Part shown: positions 4,588 through 34,403 of the stretch, in pieces
How the letters are laid out: every line of letters begins with the position of its first letter
Position numbering within the stretch: the first letter of the stretch is position 1
Source of the DNA: Escherichia coli
GTDB taxonomy: Bacteria > Pseudomonadota > Gammaproteobacteria > Enterobacterales > Enterobacteriaceae
NCBI RefSeq assembly: GCF_002854065.1
Contig: NZ_CP024147.1
Reading direction: 5' to 3' (one strand)
DNA length: 64,000 nt
Program-made: the position numbers and the translations under genes
Notes under the pieces: model-generated
The model's input: only the letters and a program-made list of their open reading frames with translations
What the model was told of the DNA's origin: nothing
Database searches by the model: none

Positions 4588-6909
4588 ATGAAAAAATTAA
4601 CCATAGGCTTAATTGGTAATCCAAATTCTGGCAAGACAACCTTATTTAACCAGCTCACTGGCGCACGTCAGCGTGTAGGTAACTGGGCTGGCGTTACCGT
4701 CGAACGTAAAGAAGGGCAATTCTCCACCACCGATCATCAGGTCACGCTGGTGGACCTGCCCGGCACCTATTCTCTGACCACCATCTCATCGCAGACCTCG
4801 CTCGATGAGCAAATCGCCTGTCACTACATTTTGAGTGGCGACGCCGACCTGCTGATTAACGTGGTGGATGCGTCTAACCTTGAGCGTAACCTGTACCTGA
4901 CGCTACAACTGCTGGAACTCGGCATTCCCTGCATCGTGGCACTGAACATGCTCGACATTGCCGAGAAGCAAAATATTCGTATTGAAATTGATGCTCTGTC
5001 GGCGCGTCTTGGCTGCCCGGTGATCCCGCTGGTTTCAACCCGTGGTCGCGGTATTGAAGCGCTCAAGCTGGCGATTGATCGCTATAAAGCTAACGAGAAT
5101 GTGGAACTGGTGCATTACGCACAGCCGCTGCTCAACGAAGCAGATTCACTGGCAAAAGTGATGCCTTCCGACATCCCGCTGAAACAACGTCGCTGGCTGG
5201 GCCTGCAAATGCTGGAAGGCGATATCTACAGCCGCGCCTACGCCGGTGAAGCGTCGCAGCATCTTGATGCCGCCCTCGCCCGTCTGCGTAATGAGATGGA
5301 CGATCCGGCGCTGCACATTGCCGATGCGCGTTACCAGTGCATTGCTGCCATCTGTGATGTGGTAAGCAACACCCTGACGGCAGAACCCAGCCGTTTCACC
5401 ACTGCGGTAGATAAAATCGTGCTCAACCGTTTCCTCGGTCTGCCGATTTTCCTCTTTGTGATGTACCTGATGTTCCTGCTGGCTATCAACATCGGCGGGG
5501 CGTTACAGCCGCTGTTTGACGTCGGCTCCGTGGCGCTATTTGTGCATGGTATTCAATGGATTGGCTACACGCTCCACTTCCCGGACTGGCTGACTATCTT
5601 CCTCGCCCAGGGCTTGGGTGGCGGTATTAACACCGTGCTGCCACTGGTGCCGCAGATCGGCATGATGTACCTGTTCCTCTCCTTCCTTGAGGACTCCGGC
5701 TATATGGCGCGTGCAGCGTTTGTGATGGACCGCCTGATGCAGGCGCTGGGCTTGCCGGGGAAATCCTTTGTGCCGCTGATCGTCGGTTTCGGTTGTAACG
5801 TACCGTCGGTAATGGGTGCACGTACACTTGATGCACCGCGTGAACGTCTGATGACCATCATGATGGCACCGTTTATGTCCTGCGGCGCGCGTCTGGCTAT
5901 CTTCGCAGTATTCGCGGCTGCCTTCTTCGGGCAGAACGGTGCGCTGGCGGTCTTCTCGCTGTATATGCTCGGTATCGTGATGGCGGTGCTGACTGGCCTG
6001 ATGCTCAAGTACACCATCATGCGCGGTGAAGCGACGCCGTTTGTCATGGAGCTGCCGGTCTACCATGTACCACACGTTAAAAGCCTGATTATCCAGACCT
6101 GGCAGCGTCTGAAAGGCTTCGTTCTGCGTGCTGGTAAAGTGATTATCATCGTCAGCATTTTCCTGAGCGCTTTCAACAGCTTCTCGTTGAGCGGGAAAAT
6201 CGTCGATAACATCAACGACTCGGCGCTGGCTTCCGTCAGCCGGGTGATCACCCCGGTCTTCAAGCCGATTGGCGTGCATGAAGATAACTGGCAGGCAACA
6301 GTTGGCCTGTTTACGGGTGCAATGGCGAAAGAAGTGGTGGTGGGTACGCTCAACACCCTCTACACCGCAGAAAATATTCAGGACGAAGAGTTCAATCCGG
6401 CGGAATTTAACCTCGGTGAAGAGTTGTTCAGCGCGGTAGATGAAACCTGGCAGAGCCTGAAGGACACCTTCAGCCTTAGCGTACTGATGAACCCCATTGA
6501 AGCTAGCAAAGGCGACGGCGAAATGGGTACCGGGGCGATGGGCGTGATGGATCAGAAATTCGGTAGCGCAGCTGCCGCATACAGCTACCTGATTTTCGTC
6601 CTGCTGTATGTACCGTGCATCTCGGTGATGGGAGCCATCGCCCGTGAATCAAGCCGTGGCTGGATGGGCTTCTCCATCCTGTGGGGGCTGAATATCGCTT
6701 ACTCACTGGCAACATTGTTCTATCAGATCGCCAGCTACAGTCAGCACCCAACTTACAGCCTGGTGTGCATTCTGGCGGTTATCCTGTTTAACATCGTGGT
6801 TATCGGTCTGCTGCGCCGCGCGCGTAGCCGGGTGGATATCGAACTGCTGGCAACCCGTAAGTCGGTAAGCAGTTGCTGCGCAGCCAGCACCACCGGTGAT
6901 TGCCATTAA
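4588..6909 (+). CDS. feoB: Ferrous iron transporter FeoB (773 aa), N-terminal G-domain plus polytopic membrane domain
   Basis: ORF 4576..6909; start set at [21 protein letters not shown] (G1 P-loop motif). Confidence 0.96.
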
Positions 6910-26935: not shown

Positions 26936-26965
26936 TGAGCTTTAACGAAAGTGAATGAGGGCAGC

Positions 26966-28471
26966 ATGGAAACCAAAGATCTGATTGTGATAGGTGGCGG
27001 CATCAATGGTGCTGGTATCGCGGCAGACGCCGCTGGACGCGGTTTATCCGTGCTGATGCTGGAGGCGCAGGATCTCGCTTGCGCGACCTCTTCCGCCAGT
27101 TCAAAACTCATCCACGGTGGCCTGCGCTACCTTGAGCACTATGAATTCCGCCTGGTCAGCGAGGCGCTGGCTGAACGTGAAGTGCTGCTGAAAATGGCCC
27201 CGCATATCGCCTTCCCGATGCGTTTTCGCCTGCCACATCGTCCGCATCTGCGCCCGGCGTGGATGATTCGCATTGGTCTGTTTATGTACGATCATCTGGG
27301 TAAACGCACCAGCCTGCCGGGATCAACTGGTTTGCGTTTTGGCGCAAACTCAGTGTTAAAACCGGAAATTAAGCGCGGATTCGAATATTCTGACTGTTGG
27401 GTAGACGACGCCCGTCTGGTACTCGCCAACGCCCAGATGGTGGTGCGTAAAGGCGGCGAAGTGCTTACTCGTACTCGTGCTACTTCTGCTCGTCGCGAAA
27501 ACGGCCTGTGGATTGTGGAAGCGGAAGATATCGATACCGGCAAAAAATATAGCTGGCAAGCGCGCGGCCTGGTTAACGCCACCGGCCCGTGGGTGAAACA
27601 GTTCTTCGACGACGGGATGCATCTGCCTTCGCCTTATGGCATTCGCCTGATCAAAGGTAGCCATATTGTGGTGCCGCGCGTGCATACCCAAAAGCAGGCC
27701 TACATTCTGCAAAACGAAGATAAACGCATTGTGTTCGTGATCCCGTGGATGGACGAGTTTTCCATCATCGGCACCACCGATGTGGAATACAAAGGTGATC
27801 CGAAAGCAGTGAAGATTGAAGAGAGTGAAATCAATTACCTGCTGAAAGTGTATAACACGCACTTTAAAAAGCAGTTAAGCCGTGACGATATCGTCTGGAC
27901 CTACTCCGGTGTGCGTCCGCTGTGTGATGATGAGTCCGACTCGCCGCAGGCTATTACCCGTGATTACACCCTTGATATCCATGATGAAAACGGCAAAGCA
28001 CCGCTGCTGTCGGTATTCGGCGGTAAGTTGACCACCTACCGCAAACTGGCGGAACATGCGCTGGAAAAACTGACGCCGTATTATCAGGGCATTGGCCCGG
28101 CATGGACGAAAGAGAGCGTGCTGCCGGGTGGTGCCATTGAAGGCGACCGCGACGATTACGCAGCTCGTCTGCGCCGTCGCTATCCATTCCTGACTGAATC
28201 ACTGGCGCGTCATTACGCACGCACTTACGGCAGCAACAGCGAGCTGCTACTCGGCAATGCGGGGGCGATAAGCGACCTCGGGGAGGATTTCGGTCATGAG
28301 TTCTACGAAGCGGAACTGAAATACCTGGTGGATCACGAATGGGTCCGCCGCACCGACGATGCCCTGTGGCGTCGCACAAAACAAGGCATGTGGCTGAATG
28401 CGGATCAACAATCTCGTGTGAGTCAGTGGCTGGTGGAATATACGCAGCAGAAGTTGTCGCTGGCGTCGTAA
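26966..28471 (+). CDS. glpD: Aerobic glycerol-3-phosphate dehydrogenase GlpD (501 aa)
   Basis: ORF 26951..28471; start set at METKDLIVIGGGINGAGIAADAAGRG (FAD-binding GXGXXG). Confidence 0.96.
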   Translation: METKDLIVIGGGINGAGIAADAAGRGLSVLMLEAQDLACATSSASSKLIHGGLRYLEHYEFRLVSEALAEREVLLKMAPHIAFPMRFRLPHRPHLRPAWMIRIGLFMYDHLGKRTSLPGSTGLRFGANSVLKPEIKRGFEYSDCWVDDARLVLANAQMVVRKGGEVLTRTRATSARRENGLWIVEAEDIDTGKKYSWQARGLVNATGPWVKQFFDDGMHLPSPYGIRLIKGSHIVVPRVHTQKQAYILQNEDKRIVFVIPWMDEFSIIGTTDVEYKGDPKAVKIEESEINYLLKVYNTHFKKQLSRDDIVWTYSGVRPLCDDESDSPQAITRDYTLDIHDENGKAPLLSVFGGKLTTYRKLAEHALEKLTPYYQGIGPAWTKESVLPGGAIEGDRDDYAARLRRRYPFLTESLARHYARTYGSNSELLLGNAGAISDLGEDFGHEFYEAELKYLVDHEWVRRTDDALWRRTKQGMWLNADQQSRVSQWLVEYTQQKLSLAS

Positions 28472-28533: not shown

Positions 28534-28632
28534 TGCCTGATGCGCTACGCTTATCAGGCCTACGTGGTTTATGCAATATGTTGAATTTGCATGATTTTGT
28601 AGGCCTGAGAAGGCGTTCACGCCGCATCAGGA
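28534..28632. repeat. Pair of inverted REP elements (BIME-like) downstream of glpD
   Basis: tgcctgatgcgctacgcttatcaggcctacg and gtaggcctgagaaggcgttcacgccgcatcagg match REP consensus in opposite orientations. Confidence 0.7.
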
Positions 28633-28684: not shown

Positions 28685-29287
28685 TTACCGCAAAGCCCAC
28701 GCCATCATACCCAACGTAACAAAACTCAGGCACGTTCCCCACTCACTCCACTTCCGTATCTGGCTTCTATTTTTGCTACGCCACTGGCAATAATATCCCA
28801 ACGCAAAACCAAGCTGTGCGCTTATTGGACCGATAAAATCCGTCCACGGCTGAGGCCAAAATGGCGAAAAATTCAGGGGTAGCCAGACAACAAGCAGAAA
28901 GAAATTGCGGATACTTTCCAGCAACGCAATTTTCGCTGGCGCGATGTAAAAAATGATATTCCAGAGGATCAACCATAAATAGACCGGTGCGAATACCAAC
29001 CAACAATGGAGCCTGCTTTTCAATTCAGATTGAGTTCTACGAGTAAATTGCCAACCAACGCAACACATTACACAGAAGAAAAGCGCATATTCAGCCGATA
29101 ACCAAAGTTGTAATTGCAGAAGTGAAATACGCCTGATCATGAGCGGGATTGAGAACAGCATTTCCCCCAGAAAACTCAGCGTGATAATACAAGCAGCCAG
29201 CGCAACCACCATCGGCCACACCAACAACGGCACAATAACAAAGCCGAGAAATAACGGATAAATATAAAGTCTGATTATATTCATCAT
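28685..29287 (-). CDS. Polytopic inner-membrane protein, unknown function (200 aa); third gene of the PstS-like operon
   Basis: Hydrophobic ORF MMNIIRLYIYPLFLGFVIVPLLVWPMVVALAACIITLSF... with about 5-6 predicted TM segments; ATG overlaps the upstream gene's stop by 1 nt. Confidence 0.6.
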   Translation of the reverse strand: MMNIIRLYIYPLFLGFVIVPLLVWPMVVALAACIITLSFLGEMLFSIPLMIRRISLLQLQLWLSAEYALFFCVMCCVGWQFTRRTQSELKSRLHCWLVFAPVYLWLILWNIIFYIAPAKIALLESIRNFFLLVVWLPLNFSPFWPQPWTDFIGPISAQLGFALGYYCQWRSKNRSQIRKWSEWGTCLSFVTLGMMAWALR

Positions 29288-30279
29288 TATTGTCCTGATG
29301 ATTCGGGGGATGCTTCATACAGCAGCACATACCCCACATCCTCTACCAACTGTTGCCCCTGCTGACTTATAAACCAGTCAACAAATTTCTGCGTTTCCGG
29401 CGTGGGATTTTCACGCGTCACCATATAGGCATCCACAATGTATGGATAAGTGCCGTTGCGGATATTTTCCTCGGTAGGCGCAACGCCATTTATAGCCAAA
29501 AGTTTAATCTGCTTGCGCATTTTGAGCATATTGTCATTCATACGAGTGACGTAATAGTGGAAGGTGTACCCAATGGAAGATGGCGTGTTTTGATAGTCGG
29601 CAACTTCAGTAATTAAACCGCCCATAAGATCAATCACAGTAGATTTTTTAGCTGGCAGCATTGGGGTGTCTTGCATAACCAATCCCTTCATAATCGTTTG
29701 GCTTCCAGAATCTTCAGGGCGCTGCCAGACTTTTATATGTTCGTCACTACCACCTACTTTATTCCAGCGGCTAGTTTTGCTGCTAAAAATATCTTTAACC
29801 TGGTGCTCAGAGAGAGAATTTACCGGGTTATTAATATCAACGATAAAGACAAAGGCTTCGCGGGCGAAAGCGGTATATTTCAGTTTAACACCCGCTTCTT
29901 CTGCACGTTTTTTCTGTCCTTCCGACGGTTGTGCAACAAAAATAACCGTCGCGGAACCTTTAATCAGACTATCGTAGGCTTCAGCTGTTCGGGTTTGCTG
30001 CAAACCATACGCCTGCCAGGCCAGCGAGGTTCGATCCTTATCTTTTGGCTCGGGTACTAATTTATAATACGCGGAGGCATACAGCGGGTATAAGGCTGTA
30101 GCGCCGTACACTCTCGGCCATCTTGACCAATCATCGCTGTAACGTAATGCAGGTTGCCCCCGCAGAGACGTCAGTCCATGGCTCTCTTCTTCCCTGACGC
30201 TGTTATAGTACCCTTCCCGGTCGACACATCCCGCCAGTAACGCCGTGCCTAATAGTAAAACACCGGTGAATTTATTCAT
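29287..30279 (-). CDS. PstS-like (PBP_like_2 fold) periplasmic-binding lipoprotein (330 aa)
   Basis: ORF 29287..30342; start set at MNKFTGVLLLGTALLAGC (lipobox LAGC); PstS-like motifs GATALYPLY, RPEDSGSQT, SIGYTFHYY. Confidence 0.7.
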   Translation of the reverse strand: MNKFTGVLLLGTALLAGCVDREGYYNSVREEESHGLTSLRGQPALRYSDDWSRWPRVYGATALYPLYASAYYKLVPEPKDKDRTSLAWQAYGLQQTRTAEAYDSLIKGSATVIFVAQPSEGQKKRAEEAGVKLKYTAFAREAFVFIVDINNPVNSLSEHQVKDIFSSKTSRWNKVGGSDEHIKVWQRPEDSGSQTIMKGLVMQDTPMLPAKKSTVIDLMGGLITEVADYQNTPSSIGYTFHYYVTRMNDNMLKMRKQIKLLAINGVAPTEENIRNGTYPYIVDAYMVTRENPTPETQKFVDWFISQQGQQLVEDVGYVLLYEASPESSGQ

Positions 30280-30304
30280 CTCGCTGATTCCTTTCTCTCG
30301 AGCG

Positions 30305-31822
30305 TTATTCCATTGTTGGATACAGCGGCACATATCCCACATCTTCTACCAGACTCTGCCCCTGCGGCGTTAAAAACCATTCGACCAGTTTTTGTGTTTC
30401 TGACGTTGTATTTTCCCTCGTTACCATAAAGGCATCGACGATATAGGGATATTTGCCGTTGCGAATATTTTCCGCAGTCGGTGTAATACCGTTAATCGCT
30501 AGCAGTTTTATATTTTTATCAGCATTCATTTGCGTCGCGTAATAGCGGAAGGTATAGCCTATTGCGTTGTTTGTATTACGGTATTCGGCAACGACTTTAA
30601 TCATTCCCTCCATCACGCTTGCCACTTCCATTTCCTGCGGCGAGATCATGCGGACATTTTTCATGACCTGTGATTGCATCACTGTCTGGCTGCCAGAGTC
30701 TTCCGGGCGCTGCCAGGTCTGGATCTCCTGATCGTTACCGCCAACAGTACGCCAGTTGGTAATTGCACCACTGAAAATGTCACGCACCTGTTGTTCAGTC
30801 AGGGAATTAACCGGATTATCCGCATTGACGATGAAAACGAATGCTTCACGGGCAAAGGGGGTGTACAGCAAAGTGACACCAGATTCCTTTGCACGTTTTT
30901 TTTGCCCACCGGAAGGTTGCGCCACGAAAATAATATCAGCATCGCCCTTAACGATTTTGTTATATGCTTCTGGCGTACGAGAGTTTTCCAGATAATCCCA
31001 AACGTGAAAATCCTCTGGTATTACACTTAATGCATAAAATGCAGAAGCATAAATTGGGTACGCAGCCGTGGCGCCATCGATTCGCGGCCAGTTTTGCCTA
31101 AACTGAATTTGCGGTTTGCCACGCAGCGGCGTCAGTCGATTATTGAGTTTATCGGGTTGCCAGGCCCAGATATCAATATTTTCGCGTACACCGACACCAG
31201 GATTGAGCTGTTTATATAAATAACCCTGATAACCAGCGACAAAACCAAGCATGAGAAGGATAAACAGGAGGGAATTACGGCAACGTAGCCCGGATGTACC
31301 GGTTAAAGGATGTCTGGTTGGCCGGCCGTACCCCAGCGAAAAACTGATATGCGCGCCAACGGGTATAATGACTATCCACCAGTACTCACCTCCGACTACT
31401 GAGACTAACAAAACGCCCAGCCAGGGGAGCATAAGATCAGCCAACCAACCCGATCCCATCTGGTGAAATTGATAATCTGCCAGATGCAGCGCGATTATCC
31501 AGCCAACCAGGATTAATAAAGCGGGTACTAAAAAAAGACATTGTCGCCAGACGGCTATTTCTCTTTTTTCTGGTGCACTATCGCCTGCCCATACTCGCCC
31601 CGAGAAAAATAGCATTAATGCGCCCAGCGCCAGCATAAAAATGTTGAGCAGAAGGTAAATTGTTGGCGTGATAAGGATATTACAAACTTCAATAATACCG
31701 GCAAGTCCGACACCCAGCATAGCAACAACCGCCGCCAAAAATTGCGTCAGTATGGGGATGCCGAAAAAAGTCATTACCAGCGAGGACAAAATCCATTTTC
31801 TGTTTTGCATTATTCTTTCCAT
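30305..31822 (-). CDS. Fusion protein: N-terminal polytopic membrane domain (about 190 aa) plus C-terminal PstS-like binding domain (505 aa)
   Basis: N-terminus hydrophobic (MERIMQNRKWILSSLVMTFFGIPILTQFLAAVVAML...); C-terminal half paralogous to the lipoprotein (GATAAYPIY, RPEDSGSQT, AIGYTFRYY); alternative start at 31810; TATAAT on minus strand at 31840..31845. Confidence 0.65.
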   Translation of the reverse strand: MERIMQNRKWILSSLVMTFFGIPILTQFLAAVVAMLGVGLAGIIEVCNILITPTIYLLLNIFMLALGALMLFFSGRVWAGDSAPEKREIAVWRQCLFLVPALLILVGWIIALHLADYQFHQMGSGWLADLMLPWLGVLLVSVVGGEYWWIVIIPVGAHISFSLGYGRPTRHPLTGTSGLRCRNSLLFILLMLGFVAGYQGYLYKQLNPGVGVRENIDIWAWQPDKLNNRLTPLRGKPQIQFRQNWPRIDGATAAYPIYASAFYALSVIPEDFHVWDYLENSRTPEAYNKIVKGDADIIFVAQPSGGQKKRAKESGVTLLYTPFAREAFVFIVNADNPVNSLTEQQVRDIFSGAITNWRTVGGNDQEIQTWQRPEDSGSQTVMQSQVMKNVRMISPQEMEVASVMEGMIKVVAEYRNTNNAIGYTFRYYATQMNADKNIKLLAINGITPTAENIRNGKYPYIVDAFMVTRENTTSETQKLVEWFLTPQGQSLVEDVGYVPLYPTME

Positions 31823-31894
31823 TCTTTCTGAATGGCGAAATTATACTCCCCGAGTCCCCTTGCCCCTTCTGGACACTTTTCCGAAATGATGGCG

Positions 31895-31921
31895 AAAAAA
31901 ACGGGACCCTTTGGCCCCGTT
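31895..31921 (-). terminator. Rho-independent terminator downstream of glgP
   Basis: Minus-strand AACGGGGCCAAAGGGTCCCGTT hairpin followed by TTTTTTT, immediately after the glgP stop. Confidence 0.7.
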
Positions 31922-31937
31922 CTATTTATTGGTGAAA

Positions 31938-34403
<2,466 letters not shown>

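Follow-up and report, generated by a model that had tools for sequence, protein, structure and literature searches.

The window analysed here, a 64,000-nucleotide (nt) stretch of the Escherichia coli chromosome (contig NZ_CP024147.1), carries three minus-strand genes, referred to below as A, B and C, that are flanked by glpD (26951–28471, plus strand) and glgP (31938–34385, minus strand). Gene A encodes a membrane domain fused to a binding domain, gene B a binding-domain lipoprotein and gene C a stand-alone membrane-domain protein (Table 1). A sequence-only reading of the window had described these genes as fused and split arrangements of the same two-domain module, and all of its gene elements were located on the minus strand at the positions it had assigned. 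Gene A ends 25 nt before the start of gene B, and the stop codon of gene B and the start codon of gene C have a single base in common (TAATG, in ..CAATAATGATG..), which is the 1-nt stop/start overlap at 29287 that had been reported. The start of gene C is preceded by AGGA at 8 nt upstream, i.e. inside gene B. Together, the three genes would form a single accessory operon packed into the variable glgP–glpD slot, the same chromosomal slot that holds yzgL in K-12 and O-island 133 (OI-133) in O157:H7. No functional study of yzgL, the Z-numbers or OI-133 was found in the literature.

Table 1. Coordinates of the genes, domains and segments of the A-B-C locus (positions in the window).
Feature	Position	Strand	Evidence or remark
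Gene A, fused membrane + binding protein	31822..30305	-	open reading frame, 505 amino acids
Gene B, binding-domain lipoprotein	30279..29287	-	330 amino acids
Gene C, stand-alone membrane-domain protein	29287..28685	-	200 amino acids
Gene A membrane domain, residues 1 to ~206	31205..31822	-	model, six long helices
Gene A binding domain, residues ~229-505	30308..31138	-	BLASTP vs gene B, PF12849
DNA segment of gene A similar to gene B 29317-29945	30320..30933		blastn
DNA segment of gene B similar to gene A 30320-30933	29317..29945		blastn
Segment missing from K-12-type genomes	28745..31592		K-12-type genome comparison; 2.85-kb deletion

The product of gene A contains hydrophobic helices at residues ~10–206, followed by a match to PBP_like_2 (PF12849) at residues 247–485 (E 1.3e-30). 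The PstS-family model TIGR02136 also matched this protein (E 1e-35, 123 bits), without reaching its curated cut-off of 206.6 bits, and the RefSeq label of the O157:H7 orthologue is 'PstS family phosphate ABC transporter substrate-binding protein'. An alternative start (the ATG at 31810) would give a product of 501 amino acids (aa). Searches with full-length gene A revealed that fused proteins of ~500 aa are widespread in Enterobacterales and beyond, with 36–54% identity over the full length; they included proteins from Klebsiella, Salmonella, Intestinirhabdus, Budviciaceae, Leminorella and Brachymonas. Gene A would thus be the copy that retains both ancestral parts, the membrane domain and the binding domain. 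One genome, NZ_CP182139.1 (H1/H39), was the only one that was 100% identical to the window across the locus, and it carries IS1B inserted in gene A.

The longest open reading frame (ORF) of gene B begins at 30342; the plausible start is at 30279 (MNKFTGVLLLGTALLAGC, lipobox), has the Shine-Dalgarno sequence AAGGA 9 nt upstream and gives the length listed in Table 1, in agreement with the RefSeq annotation of the O157:H7 orthologue. Read from the sequence, its lipobox is LLAGC, which fits [LVI][ASTVI][GAS]C and predicts lipidation at Cys18. TIGR02136 matched gene B as well (E 1.1e-32, 113 bits, again under the cut-off), and its nearest relatives in the PDB were PstS phosphate-binding proteins (E 3e-15). 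By an established sorting rule, a lipoprotein is directed to the outer membrane unless residue +2, counted from the lipidated Cys, is Asp. The residue at this position in gene B is Val, not Asp, and its product is therefore predicted to be sorted to the outer membrane, apart from the product of gene C.

The binding domains of genes A and B were 58% identical over 286 aa (BLASTP, E 2e-115), and similarity was also evident at the nucleotide level, with 67% identity over 633 nt between the two DNA segments of Table 1 (blastn, E 2e-48). This agreed with the sequence-only reading, whose two 25-mers each occurred exactly once, at 30328 and 29325 (plus strand); the ranges that it gave for the similarity (roughly 29300–30100 and 30320–31100) reached slightly too far on the 5' side of the domains. 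As the coordinates, the domain matches and the binding-domain similarity were all borne out, the descriptive part of that reading was correct.

We examined the relationship of the two binding domains in a neighbour-joining tree of 72 representatives with 200 bootstrap replicates. All lipoprotein forms fell into a single clade (97.5% bootstrap) that was nested among enterobacterial fused forms, and all distant relatives and outgroups (Budviciaceae, Leminorella, Brachymonas and others) were fused, which indicates that the fused form is ancestral and the lipoprotein derived. Genes A and B were sisters in none of the 200 replicates. In agreement with this, the binding domain of gene A was 67–69% identical to fused proteins of Klebsiella and Salmonella and 60.5% identical to that of gene B, and gene B was closest to the lipoproteins of other genera (67–84%). 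Because A is nearer to the Klebsiella and Salmonella fused proteins than to B, and A and B were never sisters, the A/B duplication is old; the ancient duplication proposed in the sequence-only reading was thus supported by the binding-domain phylogeny, one of the checks that it had suggested.

Alignment of the fused and lipoprotein forms pointed to a route by which one may have given rise to the other. The signal peptide of gene B aligned with the last helix (helix 6) of the fused membrane domain, the lipobox Cys of the lipoproteins aligned at a conserved A-G-[YW]-Q of this helix, and a linker motif 'NSVxE' following helix 6 or the lipobox was common to both forms. A lipobox was present in every member of the gene B clade. 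Since the signal peptide aligns with the last membrane helix, gene B appears to be an N-terminally truncated fused gene, and we infer that B-type genes arose through loss of helices 1–5 and conversion of helix 6 into a lipoprotein signal peptide. Gene B would accordingly belong to an old lipoprotein lineage without helices 1–5, in which signal peptide and lipobox replace the last helix, and this lineage would be a clear example of a lipoprotein arising from a polytopic protein. A fused gene with an internal deletion, in which the last helix now reads LSGC, was found in Superficieibacter. The slot fragments at this locus (L006 4814–6484) consist of helices 1–3 of the fused gene, a binding domain with the leader LVLSGC and a chimeric ORF which, judging from the translations, contains pieces of a 236-aa gene, a 255-aa gene (both described below) and the tail of gene C.

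The relationship between gene C and the membrane domain of gene A was not apparent from pairwise comparison, as the two were only ~17% identical and BLASTP gave no significant match (E 2.8). A comparison by hhalign of shallow, Escherichia-only alignments (number of effective sequences, Neff, ~1.2) gave a probability of 0.7% and was superseded by deep profiles. Word-indexed searches with gene C and with the N-terminal membrane domain (N-domain) of gene A recovered Escherichia sequences only, many of them frameshifted fragments, and sequence diversity was obtained solely by searching with full-length gene A. A hidden Markov model (HMM) built from 38 diverse fused N-domains, with C-family sequences excluded, scored the C family at 30–53 bits, collinearly and along its entire length; the highest score reached in 3,000 shuffles was 3 bits when sequences were shuffled fully, 16 bits when they were shuffled in windows of 20 residues and 23 bits in windows of 8 residues. 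Applied to all ORFs of the window and six related loci (~129 kb), the HMM recognised fused proteins, their fragments and C homologues only. With deep profiles, hhalign matched the fused N-domains to the C family with probabilities of 97.5% and 97.1% (E 9e-12 and 5e-11) and aligned the motifs ..GAHISFSLGY.. and ..GPISAQLGFALGYY.., which the sequence-only reading had quoted, to each other. In addition, a C-family member matched one fused N-domain by BLASTP (E 2e-8). An exhaustive search of 1.84 billion representatives with the N-domain profile returned only 170 proteins, including the C-family member P0026 (E 9e-8); 132 of the 170 were new to the earlier searches, among them 71 fused to this binding domain and 20 full-length membrane domains without it. 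The resemblance that the sequence-only reading had noticed in the membrane domains is therefore established by profile (hhalign 97%, library-wide E 9e-8) and is missed by pairwise comparison of A with C; in the profile alignment of the fused N-domain with the 200-aa protein, which that reading had also named as a check, homology is clear.

Structure prediction gave a similar picture. AlphaFold2 modelled the membrane domain of gene A and gene C (predicted local distance difference test, pLDDT, 88 and 82, respectively) with the same six-helix pattern, and the model of gene C matched models of fused proteins in the AlphaFold database (AFDB) with template modelling scores (TM-scores) of 0.70–0.74 and nothing else above 0.4. 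Conserved intramembrane Pro/Trp/Gly motifs occur in the domain. Gene C had no match in Pfam, NCBIfam or PADLOC, and the membrane domain as a whole is without a Pfam family and without a known fold match outside its own family. Gene C would thus represent a membrane-domain-only paralogue that ends a few residues past the last helix. Intact stand-alone membrane-domain genes encoding 211–215 aa were also found in unrelated neighbourhoods with no binding protein nearby (L016 4001–4636, L018 4001–4645 and L019 389–1036); one of them lies directly upstream of a P-type cation ATPase.

The distribution of the three genes was determined in 5,426 complete E. coli genomes. Full-length gene A was present in 3,349 and gene B in 884–900 of these genomes, and at least 2,053 had gene C with 80% or more of its length covered; O157:H7 carries the whole A-B-C locus at 94% identity. 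Alternative haplotypes consisted of gene A followed by a 236-aa gene, a 255-aa gene and an allele of gene C designated C', of gene A followed by the 255-aa gene and C', or of a fimbrial operon followed by the 236-aa gene, the 255-aa gene and C'. C' has ~79% DNA identity to C and starts 2 nt after the unrelated 255-aa gene. The 236-aa and 255-aa genes, both unrelated to B, were seen in its place at L002 5958–8046, L013 1382–3470 and L012 1458–2833; the fimbrial operon, seen in one slot haplotype, is of the chaperone-usher type. Neither cassette gene had a match in Pfam, NCBIfam or PADLOC. The gene that follows the homologue of A in Klebsiella has 55% identity to the 236-aa gene, and the 255-aa gene was considered as a YbbD_head relative and rejected, as it showed no relationship to YbbD_head proteins.

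The ratio of nonsynonymous to synonymous substitutions (dN/dS) was 0.13–0.24 for A, ~0.1 for B and 0.21–0.24 for C (the latter over dS values of up to 0.9), indicating that all three are maintained genes under purifying selection. The allele classes of the slot are far older than its flanks, as glpD and glgP are 95–99% identical. Gene A itself is a recombinant mosaic: between the window and L013 (3486–4994) its membrane part differs by a dS of 0.019 and its binding part by a dS of 0.43. In K-12-type genomes, the pseudogene yzgL is a remnant in which the initial 230 nt of A run directly into the final 60 nt of C, and it is thereby explained as the scar of the 2.85-kb deletion. The locus also shows that a well-studied genome can harbour a highly polymorphic slot whose alleles are very old.

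The sequence-only reading had suggested that the tandem duplication was followed by fission or fusion, which would make B and C the split counterpart of A. In this scenario a fused paralogue was divided into two coupled genes, and their products come together again at the membrane, where they might pair with the membrane domain of A as well. Each product is indeed homologous to the matching half of A, the two genes overlap by 1 nt with the Shine-Dalgarno sequence of C lying inside B, B in E. coli always occurs with the C-type allele rather than C', and the nearest fused relatives of both halves tend, weakly, to the same subgroup. However, the order of the split genes (binding, then membrane) is the reverse of that in the fused protein (membrane, then binding), and the two genes also occur independently of each other. 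B-type lipoproteins without a C-like gene were found in Salmonella (L003) and at L020, at least 1,169 E. coli genomes have C or C' without B, C' is coupled to the unrelated 255-aa gene, and no binding protein is encoded next to the membrane-domain genes that stand alone elsewhere. Moreover, the predicted outer-membrane location of B would keep it apart from C. The alleles of the membrane parts do not co-vary either (L013 vs the window: dS 0.019 for the membrane domain of A and 0.9 for C), which is one point against tight pairing of these two parts, for which pairing had been suggested as a possibility. An origin of the arrangement in a single fission or fusion event is therefore not supported: B and C are probably not a clean fission pair, and we consider reassembly of split halves unlikely. 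The translational coupling of B and C would instead reflect operon packing.

A further explanation for gene C is that it represents a functionless, decaying remnant of a truncated fused gene. How the binding part of a fused copy downstream of B can be lost was illustrated by Pseudocitrobacter, in which an orthologue of B (76% identical) is followed by a 351-aa gene consisting of the membrane domain and an internally deleted binding domain. If this gene is taken as an intermediate, decay of C would be consistent with the exact coincidence of its end with that of the last helix, with the frameshifts found in C in some strains and with the many database entries of its family that are fragments. 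It is difficult to reconcile with the dN/dS of C, which was low over considerable divergence (values above), with the intact ORFs of 196–201 aa in E. coli, E. albertii and E. marmotae, with the number of genomes in which C is largely complete, or with the intact stand-alone homologues in other phyla, and we regard it as very improbable. In the translations, the Pseudocitrobacter 351-aa gene (L005 6002–7057) and the lipoprotein beside it end in 30 nearly identical residues, a pattern suggestive of gene conversion between the two genes.

The binding fold of A and B belongs to the PstS/PBP_like_2 family (PF12849, TIGR02136), and three motifs that would correspond to the canonical anion-binding motifs of PstS are invariant among its relatives here. 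Of 107 family members, at least 98% have GATA 250–253, T283, R372-P373 and S376-G377-S378 (gene A numbering); from a by-eye alignment, we take these motifs to be equivalent to T10, S38, R135 and S139–T141 of PstS. Given this invariance, ligand binding seems to be preserved. The predicted lipid anchor of gene B resembles that of Gram-positive PstS lipoproteins. In contrast to PstS, A and B scored well under the NCBIfam cut-off (123 and 113 bits vs 206.6), no pstCAB-type genes were nearby in any genus examined, and gene A contains a multi-pass membrane domain of ~200 aa that PstS proteins do not have. Searches of the literature on fused or orphan PstS proteins found nothing relevant.

In OpuA/GlnPQ-type ATP-binding cassette (ABC) importers the binding domain is fused to the permease, and Gram-positive bacteria and archaea have membrane-tethered binding proteins. 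Gene A is like these in that a covalent fusion holds the binding domain at the membrane. It differs in that its membrane domain matched no ABC permease (no family or fold match to a BPD_transp-type fold with an EAA loop), is not accompanied by an ATPase gene and also exists alone. No ABC permease or ATPase genes were called at the window locus or in the 4–7 kb flanks of the related loci that were read (Escherichia, Salmonella, Klebsiella, Pseudocitrobacter, Superficieibacter and Budviciaceae). As there is no ABC partner in cis, ligand delivery or signalling would proceed via the membrane domain itself or via a transporter encoded elsewhere. A lipid anchor alone would suffice to hold a binder, as in B, which argues that the membrane domain is a functional partner and not a simple anchor. 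Since this domain is almost always fused to one PstS-like subfamily and yet also occurs alone, it may be part of a binding-protein-dependent membrane device that is distinct from ABC, tripartite ATP-independent periplasmic (TRAP) and tripartite tricarboxylate (TTT) transporters.

Taken together, we consider it fairly probable that A, B and C have all diverged from a single ancestral gene, and that A is a membrane-held oxyanion binder with a functional membrane domain. The product of this ancestor would have crossed the inner membrane several times with its first domain, and its second, periplasmic domain would have bound oxyanions with a PstS-type (Venus-flytrap) fold. Gene A would display a domain binding phosphate-like anions at the periplasmic face of the inner membrane, gene B would provide a second binder, lipid-anchored and predicted to reside at the outer membrane, and the membrane domain would be a module with a function of its own and not just an anchor. 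Here the ligand class, the subcellular sorting and any physiological role are our inference, as is the origin of the gene B signal peptide; the domain homologies, the phylogeny, the population distribution and purifying selection are what the data show. At this locus a PstS-like binding protein is combined with a hitherto undescribed membrane domain, and the module exists here as a complete, a binder-only and a membrane-only version. The binding half itself is an ordinary fold, and the locus exposes an uncharacterised membrane domain with ~170 representatives among 1.84 billion proteins.

Several observations weigh against this interpretation. The charge pattern and the periplasmic binding domain call for an N-in/C-out topology with an odd number of helices, which conflicts with the six that were modelled. 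The structural similarity of A and C is partly built in, because the alignment used for the gene C model contained fused homologues. In the by-eye alignment with the E. coli PstS sequence, the residue at the position of Asp56 seems to be replaced. With regard to separate origins of B and C, 882 of 884 E. coli genomes with B carry A, B and C. In the membrane-domain tree, the best sister group of gene C had 34% support and the look of a long-branch artefact; the fused N-domains most similar to gene C were those of P0170, P0172 and P0167 (25–27% identity), and the binding domains of these same proteins adjoin the lipoprotein clade with only 11–20% support. B and C may therefore have a common origin from one fused ancestor.

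Relatives of gene B were also found next to Rhs toxins, raising the possibility that the locus lies within an orphan immunity island and that the PstS-like B, and perhaps A, protects against a periplasm-acting toxin delivered by Rhs proteins or the type VI secretion system (T6SS). In E. albertii (L021), the C-terminal toxin tip of an Rhs protein linked to VgrG is followed at 84–105 nt by a lipoprotein with 68% identity to B. The same tip recurs in Salmonella (L003) as a decayed orphan copy (67% identity over 125 aa, E 1e-51), and an intact lipoprotein of the clade again comes after it. In E. coli EC42405 the lipoprotein was kept between two Rhs genes after replacement of the toxin tip. Relatives of B thus occupy the immunity-gene position after an Rhs tip, as in Rhs orphan arrays such as rhsD-ybbC-ylbH-ybbD of K-12. 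The genes downstream of A homologues in Klebsiella and Salmonella encode YbbD_head, a domain whose name comes from the K-12 gene that occupies the orphan-immunity position at rhsD. The presence/absence polymorphism, very old alleles (dS 0.8–0.9) and mosaicism of the slot would also be consistent with such an island. However, only two loci showed concordant tips and lipoproteins, and relatives of the toxin (46–47% identity) in Citrobacter (L023) and a metagenome (L024) are followed by multi-pass membrane proteins of 105–111 aa and by no binding protein. Unlike in the Rhs arrays, A-B-C adjoin no Rhs core, toxin tip or VgrG, no Rhs or toxin remnant was present in the window, and its genes do not stand in the immunity-gene position. 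Gene A, moreover, is found at the same chromosomal position in several genera and has kept the invariant motifs taken to bind small anions. PADLOC, which covers phage defence and not toxin immunity, gave no matches. We therefore doubt a role of B or A in immunity, and the broader proposal that recombination exchanges binding-protein paralogues and other cassettes of immunity type within the glgP–glpD slot of Enterobacteriaceae, making it an island of orphan immunity genes, appears equally unlikely to us. If true, a phosphate-binding-protein fold would be seen here for the first time in the role of toxin immunity, and a new class of immunity proteins would be defined.

The C-terminal toxin tip of these Rhs proteins comprises ~130 aa and is without a Pfam family. 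Tip and lipoprotein lie at L021 1759–6999 in E. albertii (tip at 5501–5893) and at L003 1598–3241 in Salmonella, the EC42405 locus with the replaced tip is L022 3976–14367, and the more distant relatives of the tip are located at L023 2155–2941 and L024 11–2574. Scans of genome and metagenome collections with the toxin tip yielded one extra locus each, neither with a downstream binding protein, and the small membrane proteins after the L023 and L024 tips had no detectable similarity to each other. Literature searches on PBP_like_2 in connection with immunity returned nothing relevant.

A scan of the locus for promoters and terminators, together with Rfam, gave nothing above chance, with the exception of one borderline small RNA (sRNA) match outside the genes. 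By eye, two features were visible in 31840–31920 (minus strand), a GC-rich hairpin with a T-run just past the glgP stop codon and a perfect TATAAT (31845..31840) upstream of gene A; the consensus scan was silent on both. The sRNA match was to Rfam ES036 (CssrF) at 28556–28598 on the minus strand (39.3 bits vs a gathering score of 37.6) and sits in the repeat-rich spacer that separates glpD from gene C.

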